Below, piece by piece: positions 1,552-44,904 of a stretch of 49,794 nt of DNA. Each line of letters begins with the position of its first letter. The first letter of the stretch is position 1. The notes below the pieces were generated by a model, which was not told where the DNA came from, made no database searches, and worked only from the letters and a program-made list of their open reading frames with translations. Location of the stretch: the IMG/VR virus record IMGVR_UViG_3300049200_000031, positions 1 to 49,794 of that record; one strand, written 5' to 3'. This DNA is from a virus. Lineage: Duplodnaviria; Caudoviricetes. A program made the position numbers and the translations under genes.

Positions 1552-2136
1552 CTACTTGGTGCTTTGCGGGCAAATTTGATGGGCTGCGATGGTGATGACA
1601 GCGCCGTTTGAATAGTTGCAGTACTTCAGCGTTCCGCTCTGAGACTGGTCGCGCAGGTAGCCTGTCACGTAGGCATTGCCTGGTATTGGGATCGGCTGCT
1701 GGTAATTTATGATTGGCGCCGGCTGCGGTTGACTGGCCTGCATCATCGCAATCCCGGCAGCCATTTGTGAAACGCCAAGTTGGGCGCGCCTGTCGGTCTC
1801 TATGCGAACCTGCGCCATTGCGGCATCATTTGCAGAGGCGCTTTCAGCCTTTATGGCTCGAATCTCATAGTCGAATTGGTCCTTTGAAATCTGCCCAGCT
1901 TCGTATCGGAGTGCAACGCCACTGGATTGATTCAGTGCAGAAAGTAGGTATCCAGGCGCAGACGCGGCCGATGCCTTGGCAAACAAGCCTTTGTAGTAGG
2001 TGGACCACTTGATTTCACCAGCTTCAGCTCGTGGCTTTTGCTGTGCAATGAACGAGTGATAATCCATCACTTCCTGGGTGGGACCAGTTGCACAGCCGGC
2101 CAGCACGAGTGCAGCAAGAATGATTGCCAATTTCAT
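1552..2136 (-). CDS. Immunity-region lipoprotein (possible superinfection exclusion/moron)
   Basis: Lipobox LAGC after a hydrophobic signal; C-terminal two-Cys module; located downstream of cI. Confidence 0.75.
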   Translation of the reverse strand: MKLAIILAALVLAGCATGPTQEVMDYHSFIAQQKPRAEAGEIKWSTYYKGLFAKASAASAPGYLLSALNQSSGVALRYEAGQISKDQFDYEIRAIKAESASANDAAMAQVRIETDRRAQLGVSQMAAGIAMMQASQPQPAPIINYQQPIPIPGNAYVTGYLRDQSQSGTLKYCNYSNGAVITIAAHQICPQSTK

Positions 2137-2297
2137 TTTTCACCTCTGTTCGGCATCCTGGCGTGCCGTTGCGCCATTGTGAATATTGCGTGACTTTTCA
2201 TTCTTAAATAGCGCGTAAAACACCCCGTCTTTTCATGACTTTCACGAGCACCTTTGCCGACTATAGTAAATATCCCGACAACAAAAGAAAGCAGTAA

Positions 2298-2522
2298 ATG
2301 GAGCAACTTCCGGACCTCACTGAGGCCTACAAAACGATGAATTCCTGGGCCCGCACCAAGTTGCTGTCGCAGGCCTTGCAATATGCGAAATCCTGGCCAG
2401 CCAATCTGCGCCAGCCAAAACTAAATCTGATGCTGAACCCTGCCATCGAGCTCGCGCCGCACCTCATCAACCGCAATGTCGATAAGCCTTCGCTGGTCCT
2501 CATTCGCAAGGCGATAAACTGA
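2298..2522 (+). CDS. 74-aa ORF convergent with and overlapping cI; candidate antirepressor
   Basis: Conserved at 43627-43851; only synonymous changes in the first 34 codons; purine-rich upstream sequence. Confidence 0.65.
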   Translation: MEQLPDLTEAYKTMNSWARTKLLSQALQYAKSWPANLRQPKLNLMLNPAIELAPHLINRNVDKPSLVLIRKAIN

Positions 2523-2786
2523 AAGCAGGCGCAATTCCTTTGCTGTCTCGCAGGTCAACTTCAACGAATCGGCCAAGCCCCCGCCGTTCACTGGTACCAC
2601 CTCAGCATTGCCTGCATCCAGGAACCCTACCCCCATTCGATAGTCAACCTCCAGCCGACGGGCGACCCGCTCACCGAACGAACCTGTCGATTTGAGCTGG
2701 GAAAAAAGGCTGCGCTCTTTCGCTGGCGTACCATTTTTGGCAATCCACCGTAATAAATTTTTTCTACGCGTTTCCACTATGTCCAT
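2421..2786 (-). CDS. cI: Prophage repressor CI-like, no S24 peptidase domain
   Basis: Divergent from cro across operators; RRxNL and SFGERVARRLE features of phage repressor N-domains; only 121 aa. Confidence 0.8.
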   Translation of the reverse strand: MDIVETRRKNLLRWIAKNGTPAKERSLFSQLKSTGSFGERVARRLEVDYRMGVGFLDAGNAEVVPVNGGGLADSLKLTCETAKELRLLSVYRLANEDQRRLIDIAVDEVRRELDGRVQHQI

Positions 2787-2792
2787 CGCACA

Positions 2793-2850
2793 AGTTTAGT
2801 CAAACCTAAATTAGTTTTCACTTGACGAGCGCTTTAGCAAGTACTAAAGT
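2793..2850. promoter_or_regulatory. OR operators with PR and PRM-like promoters of prophage 1
   Basis: TTTAG-TCAAAC-CTAAA (2795-2810), ATTAG-TTTTCA-CTTGA (2810-2825), TTTAG-CAAGTA-CTAAA (2833-2848); PR TTGACG-17-TAAAGT. Confidence 0.75.
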
Positions 2851-2856
2851 TGCGTC

Positions 2857-3090
2857 ATGGACCTTAAAACTTACATCACCGCCGAGCGCGGCCGAGCGAC
2901 CGCACTAGCTGCAAAGCTGGTCGTGTCCCCTTCCTACCTTTCGCAACTCGCCAACGGGCAAGCTCCGATTTCGCCAAAACGTGCGGTTGAGATCGAGCAG
3001 GAGACCGATGGTCTGGTCACGCGCAAGGAAATGTTCCCGGGTGATTGGCCCCAAATCTGGCCCGAACTCGCACAAGCATCCCCTACCTAA
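2857..3090 (+). CDS. cro: Cro/YdaS-like HTH regulator
   Basis: HTH LAAKLVVSPSYLSQL; AVEIEQETDGLVTRKEMFP..WPQIWPEL signature. Confidence 0.88.
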   Translation: MDLKTYITAERGRATALAAKLVVSPSYLSQLANGQAPISPKRAVEIEQETDGLVTRKEMFPGDWPQIWPELAQASPT

Positions 3091-3132
3091 AAATTTTGCC
3101 ACTTTTCCTACCGGAAAGTAGAGGAAACCATC

Positions 3133-3513
3133 GTGCCGCAGATTTCCAGTACCCAATTTACCCTCGACTTCGAAGCTGGCCTGACGGAAAAGTATCCGCA
3201 CCTGCTCGACTGCATCCGGGCCAGCGCCTACGGGCACCGCAACCCATTGAAGACCATCGCTGCCGACATGGACATGAGCCAGTCGGACCTGTCGCGCAAG
3301 CTACACGGCAACCCGGATGATCCGCGCCATTTCTCTGTCGATGATCTGGAGCGCTTCGTGCAAGCCACTGGCGACACCATGCCGATTTACTGGCTGGTGG
3401 AAAAGTTTCTGGAAGATGGAGAAGCGCGCAAGAACCGCGCCCTGGGTGAGCTGGCCAAGCAGCTGCCGAACATCATGGCGATGCTCAAGGCCGCGACTGG
3501 GGGTGAAGCATGA
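3133..3513 (+). CDS. CII-like phage regulator
   Basis: HTH LKTIAADMDMSQSDLSRKL, position after cro; homolog at 44536-44904. Confidence 0.7.
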   Translation: MPQISSTQFTLDFEAGLTEKYPHLLDCIRASAYGHRNPLKTIAADMDMSQSDLSRKLHGNPDDPRHFSVDDLERFVQATGDTMPIYWLVEKFLEDGEARKNRALGELAKQLPNIMAMLKAATGGEA

Positions 3514-32651: not shown

Positions 32652-32697
32652 ACGATCGTCTTATATACAGTATTGGGTATACGTACAGTTTCGCACG

Positions 32698-32710
32698 TAA
32701 CCCATTGATT
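32698..32710 (-). promoter_or_regulatory. IHF binding site in att region
   Basis: Reverse complement AATCAATGGGTTA matches WATCAANNNNTTR. Confidence 0.7.
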
Positions 32711-32714
32711 TCAT

Positions 32715-32759
32715 TGGTCGGGACGGAGTGATTCGAACACTCGACCCCTTGCACCCCAT
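32715..32759 (-). other. att core: 3' half of tRNA-Pro(GGG)
   Basis: Reverse complement ATGGGGTGCAAGGGGTCGAGTGTTCGAATCACTCCGTCCCGACCA = anticodon loop, T arm and acceptor CCA; 5' half absent; adjacent to integrase. Confidence 0.9.
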
Positions 32760-32877
32760 TGAGGGTTGCGCTAAGAATGCGCCTAGCGGTTATTGACTGG
32801 CGCCGTATTTCGTCAAATATACAGTGCTTTTGCCATGTCGGTGCTAGCCAGTGCTGGCAGCGCCATTTCTGCCGATA

Positions 32878-34026
32878 TTAGACGCCTTTGGACGTCTTTT
32901 GGACGTCAATCCAAGGCAGCGGCAGGTCGATATGCGACACGTCCGCGACAGCTTCCTTCAAGTATATCTCGGTCGTCTCCTCGTTCATGTGCGCCAGTCG
33001 CTCTTGAATCTCTTTCCTCCCCTTCCCTGCCTTCAGCGCATCCGTGGCGCCCAGCGCGCGCAAGTCTTTGAACCAGACCGATTCCTTGATGCCAGCGCGC
33101 TCCCTGGCTCTGTCCCACATCGAGAACAAGCCGCTTTTCGTGTACGGCGTACCCTTCTGCGACGGGAACAGGTAGCCGGCGTCCTTCCTCAGCTTGTAGC
33201 CTGCCTTGATCGCTCTGGCCCGGTCAAGTACACCCTGAATCTCGCTGGTGATCGCAAACTCGACAATCTTGCCGCTCGACTTCTTGGTCTTGGACGCCTG
33301 AATACGAATCTTGCCGTCCTCAATCTGCCCCTCGGTGAGCATACGAATGTCGATTGCGCGCGCCCACAGCAGATAGGTCATGTCGATAATGCAGGCGAAC
33401 ATAGGCCCGCTGGCGGTCGGGATCTGCTTGCCCGTACTCTTGCGCGGCTTGCTGGTCATGCCGTGTGTCCGGATCAGTGCCACCTGGTCGTGTGTCGGCA
33501 GCACCTCGCGGCGCGCCGTTTCGAAGTCGGCCATGTCCAGCTGGTCGATGGGGTTGTCCTGGCGCAGGCCATGGCGCGAGATCGCATGCTTGAACAGCTT
33601 GCGGGCCAGGCCGGCATACTTCTGGGCCGTGTTGGGCATGGCGCCGAAGCGCTCATAGAGGAAGTCCGCGAAATCCTTGGTGGTGACTTCGGACGAATGA
33701 AATTCTTCGAACTCGTCGGCTATCACGTCGAGGTACTGGGAATACTGCTCTTGCACTGCCTTGCTGAACGGTTTCAACTTGTTGGCCTTGAAGTCGGCGC
33801 ACAGAAATGGCATGCTCCCGGCGCGCAGCGTGGGCCCGCCGATCAGGCCAGCCAGGGCGGTGAGCATAGCGCTCTTGCCCTGGTCGACGCGGGACAACTG
33901 GATCCAGGCCTGCACCTTGTCGTTCTTCGGGTTGAGCATCGGCTCGACCGGAACAAAGAAATACGCCCCAGACTTCACATAGACGCGCTGGGGAAGGTCC
34001 TTATCCTTGGTGCGGCGTCGGTTCAT
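32878..34026 (-). CDS. int: Tyrosine integrase
   Basis: DLPQRVYVKSGAYFF arm domain; WARAIDI, KTKK, FKDLRA and LAH...TEIY catalytic motifs. Confidence 0.95.
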   Translation of the reverse strand: MNRRRTKDKDLPQRVYVKSGAYFFVPVEPMLNPKNDKVQAWIQLSRVDQGKSAMLTALAGLIGGPTLRAGSMPFLCADFKANKLKPFSKAVQEQYSQYLDVIADEFEEFHSSEVTTKDFADFLYERFGAMPNTAQKYAGLARKLFKHAISRHGLRQDNPIDQLDMADFETARREVLPTHDQVALIRTHGMTSKPRKSTGKQIPTASGPMFACIIDMTYLLWARAIDIRMLTEGQIEDGKIRIQASKTKKSSGKIVEFAITSEIQGVLDRARAIKAGYKLRKDAGYLFPSQKGTPYTKSGLFSMWDRARERAGIKESVWFKDLRALGATDALKAGKGRKEIQERLAHMNEETTEIYLKEAVADVSHIDLPLPWIDVQKTSKGV

Positions 34027-34235
34027 TGACGAGCTGATTTGCGCTGTGGGCGCTCTTCTGGCGCGTTTGCAGCCTGTTGGCGGGCGACCAGATCGACGCG
34101 CAGCACACAGATCGTGTTGTCGTGCCGGCGTGTGGCCGGAATTCCCAGGGCCAGCAGGTCGCGCAGCTGCTCCACGGGGCGCTTGCGGTGCGTGATGGCG
34201 ACGATCTCTTCCGCCGAAAGTACCAAATCGGACAT
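34023..34235 (-). CDS. DUF4224 excisionase-like protein
   Basis: LSAEEIVAITHRKRPVEQ...LGIP; coupled to int. Confidence 0.8.
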   Translation of the reverse strand: MSDLVLSAEEIVAITHRKRPVEQLRDLLALGIPATRRHDNTICVLRVDLVARQQAANAPEERPQRKSARQ

Positions 34236-34246
34236 TGCGTTTTCCA

Positions 34247-34579
34247 TCATTCCCCCTGTGGTTTTGGTGCAGCAGCAATTAGGTCTTTATAGACCGGGTA
34301 GCAATTCCAAAATCCATGTTTTCTCTGCGCAGCGTAATACGCTTGCTCTATTTCCTTTGTTGGCTCCATCGGCATCAGCATCCAGCCATCAGGCACCGCT
34401 GCTACTGGCGGCAGTGCTGCGCGGACATGTTCGGCGCTGGCTTTCCAGACGCGCCACCATGCGTCCTGCCAAGGCCATTCGTAGCTCTCGCCACGGCGCG
34501 CGACTTTGAAGTTGTGTCCGGCCTCAAGGCATTTCGCTTCAAACGCATCGCGCTCGGCTTGGCTCTCTGTATGGGTCAT
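34247..34579 (-). CDS. Hypothetical protein
   Basis: ERDAFEA and VPDGWxLxPxEPT...AAAPK modules of phage early genes. Confidence 0.7.
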   Translation of the reverse strand: MTHTESQAERDAFEAKCLEAGHNFKVARRGESYEWPWQDAWWRVWKASAEHVRAALPPVAAVPDGWMLMPMEPTKEIEQAYYAAQRKHGFWNCYPVYKDLIAAAPKPQGE

Positions 34580-34582
34580 GGT

Positions 34583-34735
34583 TTAGCTTTCAAGAATGAC
34601 AATATTGGTGTCGTAGCCGTTCCTGATCCGCGACAGTTCTTCGTGCCCGCATTCTTCGATCCAGTCTTCAGCCTCGTCCACGGTGTCGAAGGTTTCGAGA
34701 ATATCGCCCATGGTGTTCCAGACGACGGCGCGCAT
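34583..34735 (-). CDS. Small acidic protein (50 aa)
   Basis: MRAVVWNTMGDILETFDTVDEAEDWIEE...; TGATG coupling. Confidence 0.6.
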   Translation of the reverse strand: MRAVVWNTMGDILETFDTVDEAEDWIEECGHEELSRIRNGYDTNIVILES

Positions 34736-35460
34736 CACTTCCCCTCCAACTGTGCGCGAGCCAGATTGGCGGCAGCGGTGCGGAATCCCGATACGGTCGT
34801 GCGGACCTGCAATTCATCGAAGCCGAACTTGCTTTTCTCGGCGTCGATACCTTGCGATGCCAGAGCGTCCACCACTTGCTGATATGACGCGGCCTCAATC
34901 GCCGCCACCAGGTCCACCGCTGGCTTGTTCGCCTTCTCGCGCAAGTGATCGAGCATTGCAGCAAGGTCAAAAGGCACGCCGCCCTCGTCGTAAAGTTGGT
35001 AGGTTGGGATATTGGCACATGCCGCAACGCACGCTTGTGCGCGCTCATCCACCGCTGGCTGTGCTGGGGCGGTTTTGAGGGCGCGGATGTTGTCCGCAAT
35101 CTGCGCTCCGTCAGGGTTCCCGGTATCCCAATTGTCAGCAATTTCGGCTGCATCTTCCAGTGCTTCATTTCGGGCTTCAGCCTCTTGCGCATTCGTCGCC
35201 CTACTCTCTGCCGCCATGCGGATTGCGTCCTCGCGGCTCTCGCCTGCGCGCATCAGCGTTGCGGCAACAGGATCGCCAGCCTCTTGCGCGGGTACTTGTG
35301 CTTGGGTTTGTAGGGTAACTGCGACCGAGTAAGACCCGACGAAGGGGTAATTCTTGTGCAGTTCGCACCCGTCCCAGCAGCCGGTGGTGGGCTTTGCGCA
35401 CTTACCCTGCTTGCAGAGTGCGTCCGGGACGAGTTTGCATAACTTTGGTGCCATGCTCAC
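34735..35460 (-). CDS. Hypothetical protein
   Basis: 241-aa ORF with Cys-rich N-terminus and RNEALEDAA module. Confidence 0.65.
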   Translation of the reverse strand: MSMAPKLCKLVPDALCKQGKCAKPTTGCWDGCELHKNYPFVGSYSVAVTLQTQAQVPAQEAGDPVAATLMRAGESREDAIRMAAESRATNAQEAEARNEALEDAAEIADNWDTGNPDGAQIADNIRALKTAPAQPAVDERAQACVAACANIPTYQLYDEGGVPFDLAAMLDHLREKANKPAVDLVAAIEAASYQQVVDALASQGIDAEKSKFGFDELQVRTTVSGFRTAAANLARAQLEGK

Positions 35461-36458
35461 GATGCGTCTCCTTGTGGCTGTTCTTGGGCGGCACGGTACC
35501 CGCGTTCAAATGCTTCCCGGTTGCTGTACGCGCGGCTCATCACCGAATCGTGCGGGCTATCTGGAATTGGAAATTCCTTATCCAACGCTTTTTCTAATGC
35601 TGCATCCCTGCCCGCCTCTTGCGCCGGGTCGGCTTTGGCTGCGTGCTCCACGATGCAGCTTGCGGTCCCGCGTTCACACATTCGGCTGGAAAACACATCG
35701 CGGGCGCATTCATCCCCCGCTCTGGCGCTCTGCTGGTCTTGCCGTGCGTCGTATCCGACCTCCCAGCCATTCTGCCAAGCCACAGAACTAGGGTACTCGT
35801 ATATTTCAGGAGCATCCGGCGTGGCGCTCTGCTGGCCTTGGGGCGCAGAAATTTCCTCAGCGATGGCTCGCAAAAGTTCAGGCTCACGCGGCTTCCAATC
35901 TGGTGCTTGCCGTGGCCTTGCCGATATTTCAAGGGCATCCAGCAGCGGCATCACATCGTCATGAAAGACAAGCCACACCTCCTCCGCAGGGCCGTCAGCG
36001 CCAAGCTCGTGAATCTTGTCAATGGTGACGGTGCCCATAATGAGGATGTTCTGAATCTCGCGCAATGCTGGCAACAAGCGCTTAAACTCTGGCGCCAACT
36101 CCGCCGCCACCGGCGTGCTGGCTGGTTCCGGGCGTGCGAGGGCGGCGCGTGCCACGCATTCGTACAATTCACGTTGTGCGCTGGTCAGGTCGTCCCAGCT
36201 TTCTACGTGATCCGGCGCGAGCACATGGAAGACGGCTTTGGCGGCATCTTGCACGTTCGGCTCGCCCGGCTGGTCTGCGTTTAATTTTGCCAGCAAGGCG
36301 TCCGCGATTTCTTGCGAGGCGCCTTTGAGGACTACGATTTGAGCGCAGTTTCCAAGCTTCTCGATGAAGCTTTGCGGCAGTACCAGTGCTGGGCAGTCGT
36401 GGATAATTGAGCGCGTCAACTTGTACAGCGCTGGCAGGTCTTTGTGTGCGGTGGTCAT
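35457..36458 (-). CDS. Hypothetical modular early protein
   Basis: AAGGA RBS before MTTAHKD. Confidence 0.65.
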   Translation of the reverse strand: MTTAHKDLPALYKLTRSIIHDCPALVLPQSFIEKLGNCAQIVVLKGASQEIADALLAKLNADQPGEPNVQDAAKAVFHVLAPDHVESWDDLTSAQRELYECVARAALARPEPASTPVAAELAPEFKRLLPALREIQNILIMGTVTIDKIHELGADGPAEEVWLVFHDDVMPLLDALEISARPRQAPDWKPREPELLRAIAEEISAPQGQQSATPDAPEIYEYPSSVAWQNGWEVGYDARQDQQSARAGDECARDVFSSRMCERGTASCIVEHAAKADPAQEAGRDAALEKALDKEFPIPDSPHDSVMSRAYSNREAFERGYRAAQEQPQGDAS

Positions 36459-36586
36459 GGTGCGGTCCTTTTGTAGTTGTGCTGCCATGCTGTCGTTGCG
36501 CGCCAGAGCGCTGCGAACTGGCTTGCCATGTTCTGCTCTCGCATCGCTTGGTGCAGGGCTTTGTGGAAGGTGGTCATGGTGATTCC

Positions 36587-36901
36587 TTAGTCTTTGTTGC
36601 AATCGTGCTCTTCGTTGCTGAAGAGATGGGCGTCCGAAAACTCGCGCGGTTCGTTGTCGTCACGCTGCATATTCCGGTATTGGCCGGTGCGCTTTTCCTG
36701 CTTTGATGCCTTGCAGGACTTTGAGCAGTACAAGCCCCAGCCGCGTTTCACGTCAGCGCTCCGGGCCAGGAACAGGCCCTTGCACCACTTGCATTTGCGC
36801 TCGACCATCTTTGGCTGGGGCACGCGGACAGAAGTGGTTGCTGGAACAGTTTGTTGTGGCTTCACAGGCGCGTATTCGACGCCATTGATGATGACGCTCA
36901 T
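36587..36901 (-). CDS. Zn-finger protein
   Basis: CKWC...RGWGLYCSKSC. Confidence 0.75.
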   Translation of the reverse strand: MSVIINGVEYAPVKPQQTVPATTSVRVPQPKMVERKCKWCKGLFLARSADVKRGWGLYCSKSCKASKQEKRTGQYRNMQRDDNEPREFSDAHLFSNEEHDCNKD

Positions 36902-37497
36902 GTGCGCTCCCTATCGGCAGCAAGGGCGGCGCGAACGACAGCGGCGTATTCTTCGCCCTTCTCCCTGTCGATCAACGCTAGCTCGCCAATGCCAAGCATT
37001 AGTGCGTCGTAGATCGGATTCCCCTTGGCCATCACATCCGGCACGCTCACCACCTTGGTGGCATCCGGCTCGGGCGCGGGGTGGGGATAAAGCGCTCGTA
37101 CTTCGCTGTCGGCGGTCGTTGCATACACCCGCGAATTGAAAGTGTTGGCGAGCGTCCACGCTTCGCCCTTCTTGCGCCACTGCCACGCGAACGGTTCCAC
37201 CCCCGCTACTTGGGCGGCTGGCTTGCGGGTCCAGGCGGCTTCTGCTTCCTTGAGTACGAGTTCAAGGTGGTGCATGAACCATGCTGACCTGTAGTTGTCT
37301 GCATCGTCGTACTCGTAGATAAATCGGTGCAGCGCGGACGCCAGCTTACTATCTGACTCAGCGCTGTACCCGCCTTCAGCAACGCGCTTGGCGATAAAGT
37401 TCGAGTTCTCGACGCGCAATTCACACTCGCTCCAATCAGGCAGACTGTTTGGCGGTGCTGGTTCGCGGTCGTCGAGCATGGTTTTGGTGTCGGTCAT
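36898..37497 (-). CDS. Hypothetical early protein
   Basis: MTDTKT start after GAGGA; EPxAW...VRALY module. Confidence 0.65.
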   Translation of the reverse strand: MTDTKTMLDDREPAPPNSLPDWSECELRVENSNFIAKRVAEGGYSAESDSKLASALHRFIYEYDDADNYRSAWFMHHLELVLKEAEAAWTRKPAAQVAGVEPFAWQWRKKGEAWTLANTFNSRVYATTADSEVRALYPHPAPEPDATKVVSVPDVMAKGNPIYDALMLGIGELALIDREKGEEYAAVVRAALAADRERT

Positions 37498-37501
37498 GGT
37501 G

Positions 37502-37657
37502 TTAGTCCTCGTCGGAGTAGAGTTGCACGACGTTGTTACCGCCATCGTGCACAAGGCCGGATACAGCTTCCCAATCCTGCGACTCCGGGTCATAAATATG
37601 GACAACGTCGGTCGGGTTGCACGCCTTTAACGTGTCGATCAGTTCTTGAACGGTCAT
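37502..37657 (-). CDS. Small hypothetical protein (51 aa)
   Basis: MTVQELIDTLK family start; coupled. Confidence 0.65.
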   Translation of the reverse strand: MTVQELIDTLKACNPTDVVHIYDPESQDWEAVSGLVHDGGNNVVQLYSDED

Positions 37658-38532
37658 TTCTCCCCCTTTGCTGGCGATGCCGTGGTAGATGGGATTGGCA
37701 ACCAGCCGATAGGCTTGTTCTCGATAGAGAAGCCAGCCGTCCACCAAGTGTTGCTGTACGCGACTTGCGGCCAGCAACTTGGAGTCAGCAATAAGATCAG
37801 TTCGCGGCCTGACATCGGCGCTGTCTCGATAGGCAACCACTCCACCTTCGCGGCTTCGTCGGCGTGCGGGTGGGGAGTGGCGATAGCTTGGGTTGCCGTA
37901 GCCAGTGCTTCGTCTAGCCATGTTTCGCACCAGTTATAGCCGCGCGGGTGAATCGCAGTGTCTACCACGAACTTCGCTTTCACGAAGTGGTTCAACGCCG
38001 CTTCCAGCACCGCCACGCGCTTGGCCAATTGGACGTTGCGGTCGAGGATGGAGAGGATTGCGGCAGGGTTGGCAGCTGCGATGAAATTTGCATTATCTTG
38101 CTGGCGTTCCGGCTCATCCTCTGGCGCTTGAGAGTGAAACGTTATGCTACAGGCGACGATCTGCGACTGCGCAGTACCATTTGCATATTCGCGGAACGGG
38201 CCTGCAACAATGGCCCCGAAGCGCTTTGCATTCCACGGTCCCGGCGTAGCCTTCTCAGCCAGCGCCCGCAATTCCCCATACTCTGCATCCAGGCTTGCTG
38301 GCTGCGAGGTGTAAAGCTTTGCGCCAACACGAAGCGCTTCGCCAGTCCACGAAATGCGCGGCATGCCATCGACGTAGCCATCGAAGATTGCGACGGGCGC
38401 GGCGGGTGTTGGGGGCTGCGAGGTGGTGGCGTTCGGCAGGCACGGGCCGCTGGTCCTGTGCAGCACGTTCTCAGCGCGCGGCTGGCCGCACGTGCAGCCA
38501 GTGGGCACTTGGCTTCCCTGTGGCGTATTCAT
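37654..38532 (-). CDS. Ead/Ea22-like protein
   Basis: LRALAEKATPGPW and NANFIAAANPAAILSILD motifs; C-terminal WLPIETAP module. Confidence 0.8.
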   Translation of the reverse strand: MNTPQGSQVPTGCTCGQPRAENVLHRTSGPCLPNATTSQPPTPAAPVAIFDGYVDGMPRISWTGEALRVGAKLYTSQPASLDAEYGELRALAEKATPGPWNAKRFGAIVAGPFREYANGTAQSQIVACSITFHSQAPEDEPERQQDNANFIAAANPAAILSILDRNVQLAKRVAVLEAALNHFVKAKFVVDTAIHPRGYNWCETWLDEALATATQAIATPHPHADEAAKVEWLPIETAPMSGRELILLLTPSCWPQVAYSNTWWTAGFSIENKPIGWLPIPSTTASPAKGEK

Positions 38533-42136: not shown

Positions 42137-42185
42137 ATTAGGCATACCTCAAACAATTGCAAGAACTATTTTAGGTACACCTAAA
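42137..42185 (-). promoter_or_regulatory. OL operators/PL region of prophage 2
   Basis: ATTAG-GCATAC-CTCAA (42137-42152) and TTTAG-GTACAC-CTAAA (42170-42185) flank TTGCAA. Confidence 0.7.
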
Positions 42186-43104: not shown

Positions 43105-43494
43105 TCAGTTGTACATCATGTCGTAGACTCGGGATGAACTGTCCACACAGACGCCACCGCCACTAGTTGATCCGGAAGCATCGCAGCGAAGGCCAGTTCC
43201 ATCCGTGCAGGTAAGGAGTGCCTTGTACGTTTCGCTGCCACTGCTCGTCTGAATTAAGGTAGTCGATGGACGACGGCCATAGGTTTGCGCGAAACCAAAG
43301 CTGTCACCACTTCCAACCTGAACAAAGTTACCTGAGCAGGTGCGTCCATCAATTTGCACGGACAACTTACCGGAGCCGAAACCATTGCTGCTAATGGTTC
43401 CAGCGTAGACCTGGCCACTATCGCGCGGCATCATCTGCATGTTGTACGCGCACCCGGTTAGCGTAAGCAAGGCCAAAACAGCGCAGAATTTCAT
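43105..43494 (-). CDS. Immunity-region lipoprotein
   Basis: MKF...LTGC lipobox; same slot as 1552-2136 but unrelated sequence. Confidence 0.75.
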   Translation of the reverse strand: MKFCAVLALLTLTGCAYNMQMMPRDSGQVYAGTISSNGFGSGKLSVQIDGRTCSGNFVQVGSGDSFGFAQTYGRRPSTTLIQTSSGSETYKALLTCTDGTGLRCDASGSTSGGGVCVDSSSRVYDMMYN

Positions 43495-43626
43495 GTTATC
43501 TCCATTTGTGAATATTGCGTGACTTTTCATTCTTAAATAGCGCGTAAAACACCCCGTCTTTTCATGACTTTCACGCGCCCCTTTGCGGCCTATAGTAAAT
43601 ATCCCGACAACAAAAGAAAGTGGTAA

Positions 43627-43851
43627 ATGGAGCAACTTCCAGACCTCACTGAGGCCTACAAAACGATGAATTCCTGGGCCCGCACCAAATTGCTGTCGCA
43701 GGCCTTGCAATATGCGAAATCCTGGCCAGACAAGCTGCGCCAACCAAAACTAAATCTGATGCTGAACCCTGCCATCGAGCTCGCGCCGCACCTCATCAAC
43801 CGCAATGTCGATAAGCCTCCGCTGGTCCTCATTTGCAAGGCGATAAACTGA
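43627..43851 (+). CDS. 74-aa ORF overlapping cI antisense (homolog of 2298-2522)
   Basis: 70/74 residues identical to copy 1. Confidence 0.65.
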   Translation: MEQLPDLTEAYKTMNSWARTKLLSQALQYAKSWPDKLRQPKLNLMLNPAIELAPHLINRNVDKPPLVLICKAIN

Positions 43852-44151
43852 AAGCAGGAGCAACTCCTTCGCCGTCTCGCAGGTCAACTTCATCGAGCCA
43901 GCCAAGCCCCCGCTGCTCACTTCCGCAGGAATCCTCTTCCGGCCATTGAGTAGCCACTCCGGATCAATCTTCAGCACCTCGCACACACGCATCAGTTTCG
44001 GCCCAGTAATCTCCCGGATGCCTCCATCAAGCACGTCCTTTTCCCAGTCGGTCACAGTTGGGTTCGACACTTTTACCAATTTCGCAAATTCCGTCTTGTT
44101 GAGCCCCTGAGATTCGCGAGCCTGGCGCAATCTTGTTTTCCATTCATCCAT
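43750..44151 (-). CDS. cI: Prophage repressor CI-like (XRE HTH), no S24 peptidase domain
   Basis: RLRQARESQGLNKTEFAKLVKVSNPTVTDWE...WLLNG; C-terminal ~50 aa nearly identical to prophage 1 CI. Confidence 0.88.
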   Translation of the reverse strand: MDEWKTRLRQARESQGLNKTEFAKLVKVSNPTVTDWEKDVLDGGIREITGPKLMRVCEVLKIDPEWLLNGRKRIPAEVSSGGLAGSMKLTCETAKELLLLSVYRLANEDQRRLIDIAVDEVRRELDGRVQHQI

Positions 44152-44225
44152 TAGGCAATCCTAATTCTTTTCAGCTAAGGCCAGCCTAAAAATAGCTTGC
44201 ATATTATTTTAGGCATGCCTAAAAT
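44150..44225. promoter_or_regulatory. OR operators and PR of prophage 2
   Basis: ATTAG-GCAATC-CTAAT (44150-44165), CTAAG-GCCAGC-CTAAA (44175-44190), TTTAG-GCATGC-CTAAA (44208-44223); TTGCAT-17-TAAAAT. Confidence 0.8.
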
Positions 44226-44233
44226 AAGATCCT

Positions 44234-44431
44234 ATGGACATCCAAGACCCCAACACCATCATCGACCGCCTCGGTGGCACATCGGAAACGGCCCGTATTT
44301 GCGACATCAAGCCCCCATCCGTTTCTCAATGGCGCACTGACGGCATCCCAAAGGCCCAGCTCAAGTTCTTGCGCTTGGCACGGCCCGACGTATTCGAAGA
44401 TCCGCCGCCCCCACCAGACCCGACCCAGTAA
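44234..44431 (+). CDS. cro: Cro-like regulator
   Basis: IIDRLGGTSETARICDIKPPSVSQWRTDGIP...RPDVF. Confidence 0.88.
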   Translation: MDIQDPNTIIDRLGGTSETARICDIKPPSVSQWRTDGIPKAQLKFLRLARPDVFEDPPPPPDPTQ

Positions 44432-44535
44432 CCAGCAGCGCCAACCCGGCGCCGCCTCGTCGCGCCTTTTTTGTTTCAAATTGGAAATAACACGTAGGAA
44501 GTCTCCTACCCATCATTGATAACCGGCGATAAAAG

Positions 44536-44904
44536 ATGAGCTCAGGAATTATCAACAGCACCCAACTGGTGCTTGACCTCGACCCCGGCCTAGTCGACCG
44601 CTACCCATGCTTGCGTGAATGCGTGGCCGCTGGCGTGTACCAGCGCGGCCTTGGCCGTGTCGCCATTGACCTCGACCAGGCCCCGGGAAACCTATCCGTG
44701 CAGCTGAGCGCCGACCCATCGCGCCATTTCAGCATTGACGAGCTGGAGCGTTACATGGAGAAGACGCGCGACTTCACGCCCATTCACTACCTGGCCGAGA
44801 AGTTCCTCTCAAATCAGGACGCAAAACAGGAAGCAGCCCAGGCTGAGCTGCTGACCGAGCTGGTCAAGCTTCAGGATTTGATCAAGCGGGCGGGGCTGAA
44901 ATGA
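44536..44904 (+). CDS. CII-like regulator
   Basis: Homologous to 3133-3513 (STQ.TLD, RHFS.D.LE, PI..L.EKFL). Confidence 0.7.
   Translation: MSSGIINSTQLVLDLDPGLVDRYPCLRECVAAGVYQRGLGRVAIDLDQAPGNLSVQLSADPSRHFSIDELERYMEKTRDFTPIHYLAEKFLSNQDAKQEAAQAELLTELVKLQDLIKRAGLK

Follow-up and report, generated by a model that had tools for sequence, protein, structure and literature searches.

A small open reading frame (ORF) of 74 aa was found to be a conserved gene, locked to the helical C-terminal domain (the tail) of a phage repressor that has no Peptidase_S24 (S24) domain, and it likely encodes an antirepressor that induces the phage; we put the probability of this reading at roughly two in three. The ORF is present twice in the window, the whole stretch of 49,794 nucleotides of viral DNA analysed here, convergent in each case with one of the repressor genes cI-A and cI-B (Table 1). 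As it sits where related repressors have a self-cutting domain, the ORF likely encodes a protein that switches the repressor off. We infer that it is translated, that its product binds the repressor tail and that derepression follows. In the proposed mechanism, the N-terminal hairpin of the ORF product would replace a second repressor tail, whereupon the repressor oligomer would be broken up and the cro promoter freed; in the relatives with a LexA box, DNA damage would switch the ORF on.

Table 1. Positions of the features discussed, in window coordinates.
Feature	Position	Strand	Remarks
Small convergent ORF, copy A	2298..2522	+	74 aa; likely antirepressor
Small convergent ORF, copy B	43627..43851	+	74 aa
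Conserved N-terminal helical hairpin, ORF codons 1-34	2298..2399	+	predicted helices 4-13, 16-32
In-register antisense overlap of ORF and cI, 102 nt	2421..2522	.	only the cI frame is constrained after the first few codons
QPKLNLML, degenerate copy of the family motif R-P-x-L-x-L-V	2412..2435	+	straddles the cI stop codon
Promoter-like site for the ORF	2240..2267	+	predicted; TATAGT -10, weak -35; no LexA box
cI-A, short repressor	2421..2786	-	121 aa; PaaR2-like N-terminal HTH, linker, two-helix C-terminal domain, no S24 peptidase
cI-B, short repressor	43750..44151	-	133 aa; HTH_3 domain and the same C-terminal domain as cI-A
cro-like gene divergent from cI-A	2857..3090	+	
cII-like gene, copy A	3133..3513	+	
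cro-like gene divergent from cI-B	44234..44431	+	
cII-like gene, copy B	44536..44904	+	
Two operator-like palindromes, TTTAG-N6-CTAAA, region A	2795..2848	.	third copy at 1421
Operator-like palindromes, TTAGG-N4-CCTAA, region B	44151..44222	.	further copy at 42171
Variable lipoprotein gene downstream of cI-A, divergent from the ORF	1552..2136	-	weak matches only
Different lipoprotein gene downstream of cI-B	43105..43497	-	weak matches only
Integrase	32878..34278	-	only one found in the window
Partial tRNA-Pro, attP-like	32710..32759	-	between the lysis genes and the integrase

A sequence-only reading of the window had described both repressors as short and devoid of an S24 autopeptidase, with almost identical C-termini behind unrelated DNA-binding domains, and each of these points held. 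Peptidase_S24 was unmatched in cI-A and cI-B, and no S24 gene was found in the entire record by a search whose control matched in 9 of 14 genomes. Of their final 53 residues, 50 are the same in the two repressors, and the N-terminal domains gave no significant blastp match to each other (best E 0.55). The N-terminal domain of cI-A matched that of PaaR2 (46% over 58 columns; structural Z of 7.0 for the model), and the C-terminal part of cI-A gave no match to this protein. PaaR2 of the E. coli O157 prophage CP-933P is a CI equivalent; the accessible part of the source mentions no convergent antirepressor for it, whereas cI-A has a convergent ORF (PMC8630535). Two of the region B operators, at about 42170 and at 44208, also fit the A consensus TTTAG-N6-CTAAA, so the A and B immunity regions may not be fully heteroimmune. 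A further palindrome, GTAGG-N6-CCTAC, lies at 44494-44509 ahead of cII in region B, and is also present 5′ of the small ORF in three relatives (L102, 1200; L022, 1301; L005, 2815).

In both copies, the opposite-strand ORF overlaps the last 102 nt of cI codon for codon, as had been proposed, and the ORF stop codon reads as a serine codon on the cI strand. ORF codons 1-34 differ between the copies at two synonymous sites only, and the two differences inside the overlap are both synonymous for cI, also in agreement with the earlier description; absent from that description were the effects of the latter on the ORF, in which they are non-synonymous (S65P and R70C), and the non-synonymous differences at ORF codons 35 and 36. 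The copies lie in a shared block (~2177 to 2592) that recurs 41,329 bases on at 94% identity, and that consists of 121 intergenic bases, the ORF and the last 53 repressor codons. As the intergenic DNA is also identical at 115 of 121 positions, by themselves the two copies say little about whether the ORF is coding. An antisense frame that stays open for 32 codons has a ~75% chance of occurring given the codon usage.

On the minus strand, a frame is open through the 5′ part of the ORF and the intergenic block in both copies (2133-2381(-) and 43105-43743(-)), and in copy B it continues in frame into the lipoprotein gene. This antisense frame shows no purifying selection in the relatives and is therefore likely a shadow. 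Three unrelated lipoprotein genes were observed behind the same 121-nt intergenic block (1552-2136, 43105-43497 and, in L001, about 2900-3262). The lipoprotein genes downstream of cI have a weak likeness to Cor exclusion proteins, and are possibly a variable exclusion cassette.

Relatives were collected with the repressor tail alone as the query, which gave 13 distinct loci (L008 was left out as a copy of L007). Co-occurrence of the ORF with this tail had been put forward as a check in the sequence-only reading, and the ORF was present in all 13 loci, with a length of 72-82 aa, in the same place and register and with the conserved N-terminal pattern. Selection was assessed in 10 disjoint pairs of close relatives, hand-chosen out of 27 loci. 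Across ORF codons 2-33, the ORF frame had a dN/dS of 0.09, and three other frames had values of 1.42, 2.45 and 1.74. Across the overlap, it was 0.87 in the ORF frame (1.04 past the first eight codons) and 0.15 in the cI frame (0.11 past the first eight ORF codons). From this pattern, the ORF is a real gene, under purifying selection at codons 2-33, and its working part is the first 35-45 residues; most of the overlapping ORF tail is a passive by-product of the cI codons. The alternative, a non-coding shadow of cI that recent DNA exchange has kept conserved, would suit the 95% identity of the intergenic DNA shared by the window copies, an overlap length that is expected by chance and the value of 1.04 deep in the overlap. 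However, it is largely refuted by the dN/dS of 0.09 outside the overlap and by the existence of 40 homologous called proteins, and we consider it extremely unlikely.

These 40 homologs were found by a profile search with the ORF, and one of them is named, from Massilia sp. PDC64; a single-sequence search returned nothing beyond the window's own cluster. The ORF had no significant match in Pfam, PHROGs or NCBIfam and no usable match in the ESM Atlas, a Foldseek search with the ORF model gave nothing significant, and Rfam had no match around the ORF/cI locus. No relatives of the tail were found in annotated phages, in genome contigs or among 399 genomes sampled from one betaproteobacterial family (17 candidates scored per genome); the 8 weak matches from the 399 genomes were all unrelated proteins. 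A degenerate pattern for the window-type ORF returned 17 stretches, of which only 3 were known loci.

The proposal that the ORF travels with the CI C-terminal domain while the HTH is exchanged was supported. Across 26 loci with 7 HTH classes, the similarity of the ORF followed that of the tail (rho 0.85; 0.84 once HTH similarity was removed) far more closely than that of the HTH (rho 0.32), and both window HTH classes were also paired with a different tail-ORF subfamily. Physical linkage alone yields co-variation of the ORF and the tail, so these correlations demonstrate a cassette and not binding.

A search with the two window HTH domains alone found 19 loci. Fourteen of these encode repressors of 218-244 aa with a Peptidase_S24 domain, and no LexA box was present within 330 nt in any of them. 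An ORF homolog was detected in 0/14, either nearby or in the whole record (five of these records are at least 90% complete and nine are under 90%), a count that covers closer homologs only, since the distant ORF of L139 escaped the search of whole records. The helical tail is carried by three of the 19 loci, and the ORF was found in all three, although in L139 the match was weak (score of 11). The other two have a third short tail, with neither an ORF homolog nor a LexA box nearby, which indicates that short repressors do not always need the ORF. The cI-A-type HTH joined to a third short C-terminal domain was observed in L138, L140 (cI at 1501) and many of P0044-P0089; repressors of the L138/L140 type have no S24, ORF homolog or LexA box nearby, and represent another non-cleaving type.

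Given that the same HTHs occur with S24 and without the ORF, the tail and the ORF appear to act as a swappable induction module that replaces self-cleavage. This alternation, with the ORF present where self-cleavage is missing, is the strongest functional clue. The ORF product could instead be a damage-induced phage protein with another target in the host or the phage, which came to lie beside cI through cassette exchange; linkage would then explain the co-variation without binding, in keeping with the weak sequence likeness between the ORF and the tail. Such a protein is harder to reconcile with the failure to detect the ORF in the 14 loci where the same HTHs carry S24, and no known antirepressor family was found among the 50 further ORFs of the window; we regard this explanation as distinctly unlikely.

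A perfect LexA box (CTGT-N8-ACAG) was present 27-162 nt 5′ of the ORF in 9 of the 13 tail-found loci. When the box alone was used as the query, 36 stretches were returned, 21 of which were the tail and ORF module (8 re-finds and 13 new, with one near-duplicate among the new dropped) and 15 of which were other things. In bacterial genomes, the same box context was mostly 5′ of genes read from their translations as dinB- or uvrA-like, as expected for LexA; a genome-wide scan for the box returned host genes, and the tail and ORF module was not among them. In L027 (1043-1159) and L030 (1234-1575), the same box lies 5′ of unrelated small ORFs that face other short HTH-type genes in convergent orientation, and these are possible analogous modules.

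No canonical LexA box was found anywhere in the window, including before both ORF copies, nor in G403, the complete relative of the window. The box was missing in 4 of the 13 tail-found loci and also in L139; upstream of the ORF it was not found in L004, L007, L102 and L139. The LexA-less loci had no common upstream motif beyond short words. The promoter-like site before the window ORF has four differences between the copies, all within the spacer. It was not called by a consensus scan, and no cI operator was found in this candidate promoter. The candidate promoter and the ORF point into cI in 27/27 tabulated loci, always with an overlap, an orientation that would equally suit convergent or antisense transcription into cI as the working part, the protein being secondary. 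The strong protein-level selection on codons 2-33 argues against this, as do the AimX/AimC phages, for which the accessible sections of the report state that start-codon mutants lost the effect and recoding of the overlap did not abolish it (10.1101/2025.11.23.689978); a working antisense transcript is thus very unlikely here.

To account for antagonism of the repressor, the sequence-only reading had proposed that the ORF product mimics the repressor tail, based on an ungapped alignment in which 4/16 residues are identical. In AlphaFold models, the ORF forms the two helices given in Table 1 (pLDDT 82) and the cI tail forms helices at 82-93 and 96-120, so that the predicted turns coincide in the proposed register. 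The best register from the family profiles was the same, and pairs ORF L7, Y/F11, R19 and L22 with L/M, Y, R and I of the tail. The ORF-tail profile score was 14.5 vs. 7.2 in shuffles, of which 2/2000 reached this score; pattern-preserving shuffles gave 7.9, and 12/2000 reached the observed score. However, an unrelated HTH domain scored 11.3 in the same profile comparison, and hhalign of the ORF against the tail gave a probability of 4% (E 0.01). The likeness in sequence, in the register first proposed, is weak, and we regard mimicry of the tail as a plausible hypothesis. The matches to the tail fold were at background level (TP901-1 CI dimerisation domain, Z 4.3; NblA, Z 5.1). The ORF product might also bind the tail as a co-repressor or stabiliser that tunes lysogeny and is not an inducer. 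A hairpin of like shape could, judging from the models, join the oligomer rather than break it, and the window copies, having no LexA box, might be constitutive; LexA control in most relatives and the replacement of S24 nevertheless fit induction better, which leaves a stabilising role with only a slim chance.

A short motif was noted where the ORF crosses the cI stop codon. L-x-L-[VILM] occurs 22-24 residues past a conserved arginine in 18/25 ORFs, and at 2/571 positions in the deep tail of the ORF. Its place in the ORF is kept although cI shifts by three codons between subfamilies. Opposite the first leucine of the motif, cI has a stop, Gln or Lys codon, each of which gives Leu on the ORF strand, with the limitation that the motif was selected on this leucine. 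The motif zone gave dN/dS values of 0.41 for the ORF frame (p 0.003) and 0.38 for the other frame. The XB peptide of SspB is a ClpX tether (PMC3983244, from which the sequence was taken) with the consensus LKxh (PMC7226468), according to the accessible parts of these sources. The best XB-like 8-mer was at position 38 in 15/25 ORFs, for example RPRLRLVK and RPSLSLVK, and the scores were reached by at most 6 in 10,000 background 8-mers, in a comparison that was made after the motif had been seen and among loci that are related. The motif differs from the SspB XB peptide in being internal, not C-terminal; it is absent in 7/25 ORFs, and the window copy QPKLNLML is degenerate, without the basic residue of L-[KR]-x-hydrophobic. 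It is possible, though unlikely, that the ORF protein is both a hairpin mimic and a ClpX adaptor, swapped for S24, with a non-LexA signal in the window lineage. The hairpin would then capture the repressor, and R-P-x-L-R-L-V across the cI stop would tether the complex to ClpXP. Induction would proceed through antirepressor-delivered proteolysis, by a two-gene cassette exchangeable behind any HTH.

The window had also been read as two co-resident prophages that could induce each other, which was not borne out. It is a single virus record with one terminase-portal-capsid set, and the two ends, some 41 kb from each other, are homologous in a mosaic pattern; G403 (40.6 kb, complete) has the replication region of the left part and the immunity region of the right part. 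Run X1 is possibly the source sample, and in it exact contigs over 30-47 kb were present at about 68-85x; the depth was uneven, with immunity region B at 73x and A- or G403-type alleles at two positions at 9.9x, and the run holds 86% of the words of region A. With one integrase and one virion gene set, the window is probably a chimeric join and not two co-resident prophages. The results favour a 41-kb phage B to which assembly attached the early region of A, a less abundant relative, over the alternative of a tandem lysogen with B induced. As the tails are 50/53 identical, action of either ORF product on the non-cognate repressor is plausible, and on sequence grounds cross-reaction would be expected between two phages whose tails and ORFs are nearly identical.

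The partial tRNA-Pro is flanked (window 32660-32830) by ATATACAGT half-sites that resemble decayed LexA boxes, and the L102 record has an intact LexA box near its end. At 34400-38300 of the window, many stretches of 28-60 nt that are common with G403 separate unrelated small genes, and contigs from other runs omit pieces of about 111 nt or of gene size; this segment appears to be an array of exchangeable cassettes.

Many prophage repressors are without a self-cleavage domain, and the small size of their inducers and the overlap with other genes make these inducers difficult to identify. In the present analysis, genomics alone sufficed to link a family that has no significant match in Pfam, PHROGs or NCBIfam with its likely target, and either induction module was seen behind the same DNA-binding domains. 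If binding is confirmed, the AimX/SinI design reaches beyond Bacillus into betaproteobacterial soil phages that are without arbitrium signalling. Lineages that have no LexA box allow direct tests for a trigger independent of SOS, and proteolytic delivery can be tested through the XB-like motif.

SinI is a small helical antagonist that resembles the oligomerisation helices of SinR. The predicted ORF product is likewise small and helical, but the sequence likeness between the ORF and the tail is weak. To our knowledge, the SinI/SinR pair is chromosomal and does not overlap in antisense. Neither the ORF copies nor the repressors matched Pfam SinI at E 0.1. SinI/SinR of Bacillus subtilis is described in the Discussion of the AimX paper, as far as that paper was accessible (10.1101/2025.11.23.689978). 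In the Salmonella Gifsy prophages and in 186 and N15, a short repressor that is not cleaved is inactivated by a small LexA-controlled protein, and one Gifsy-type antirepressor can act on repressors with different operators, as given in the accessible portion of PMC3121763. According to the same portion, the Gifsy antirepressor genes are outside the immunity region, whereas the window ORF overlaps cI; a LexA box precedes the antirepressor genes in these phages, whereas the window copies have none and 9/13 tail-found relatives have one. The smORFs of Vibrio are activator-driven and specific in the part of the source that was available (PMC10432266).

No earlier description of the present layout in Proteobacteria was found in the literature searched, which consisted mainly of papers outside subscription and in part of partial texts; within it, only Bacillus phages are described as having the antisense-antirepressor design. 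AimX/AimC of the Bacillus arbitrium phages is the closest known system, and the following rests on the accessible sections of its report (10.1101/2025.11.23.689978). AimX, of 29-80 aa, is convergent with, and sometimes overlaps, the 3′ end of a short repressor gene, and forms a heterodimer with the repressor, which the models place at the C-terminal domain; antisense RNA proved unimportant there, and a LexA site is present 5′ of AimX in some phages and missing in many. The window ORF is also convergent with the 3′ end of a gene for a short HTH repressor, and this repressor is also non-cleaving and divergent from a cro-like gene. The two systems differ in their upstream genes (aimR/aimP there, and a divergent variable lipoprotein gene in both copies here), in their host group (one ORF homolog being from Massilia sp. 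PDC64) and in the alternation of the window-type module with S24 behind the same HTH; binding was demonstrated for AimX, whereas for the ORF we infer it. Neither of the two profiles searched against PDB sequences matched AimX/AimC, and the entry 9iaq aligns only over the HTH (Z 4.4). With no neighbouring arbitrium genes and no detected sequence link, the locus is not a member of AimX/AimC, yet by analogy with that system it may work likewise.
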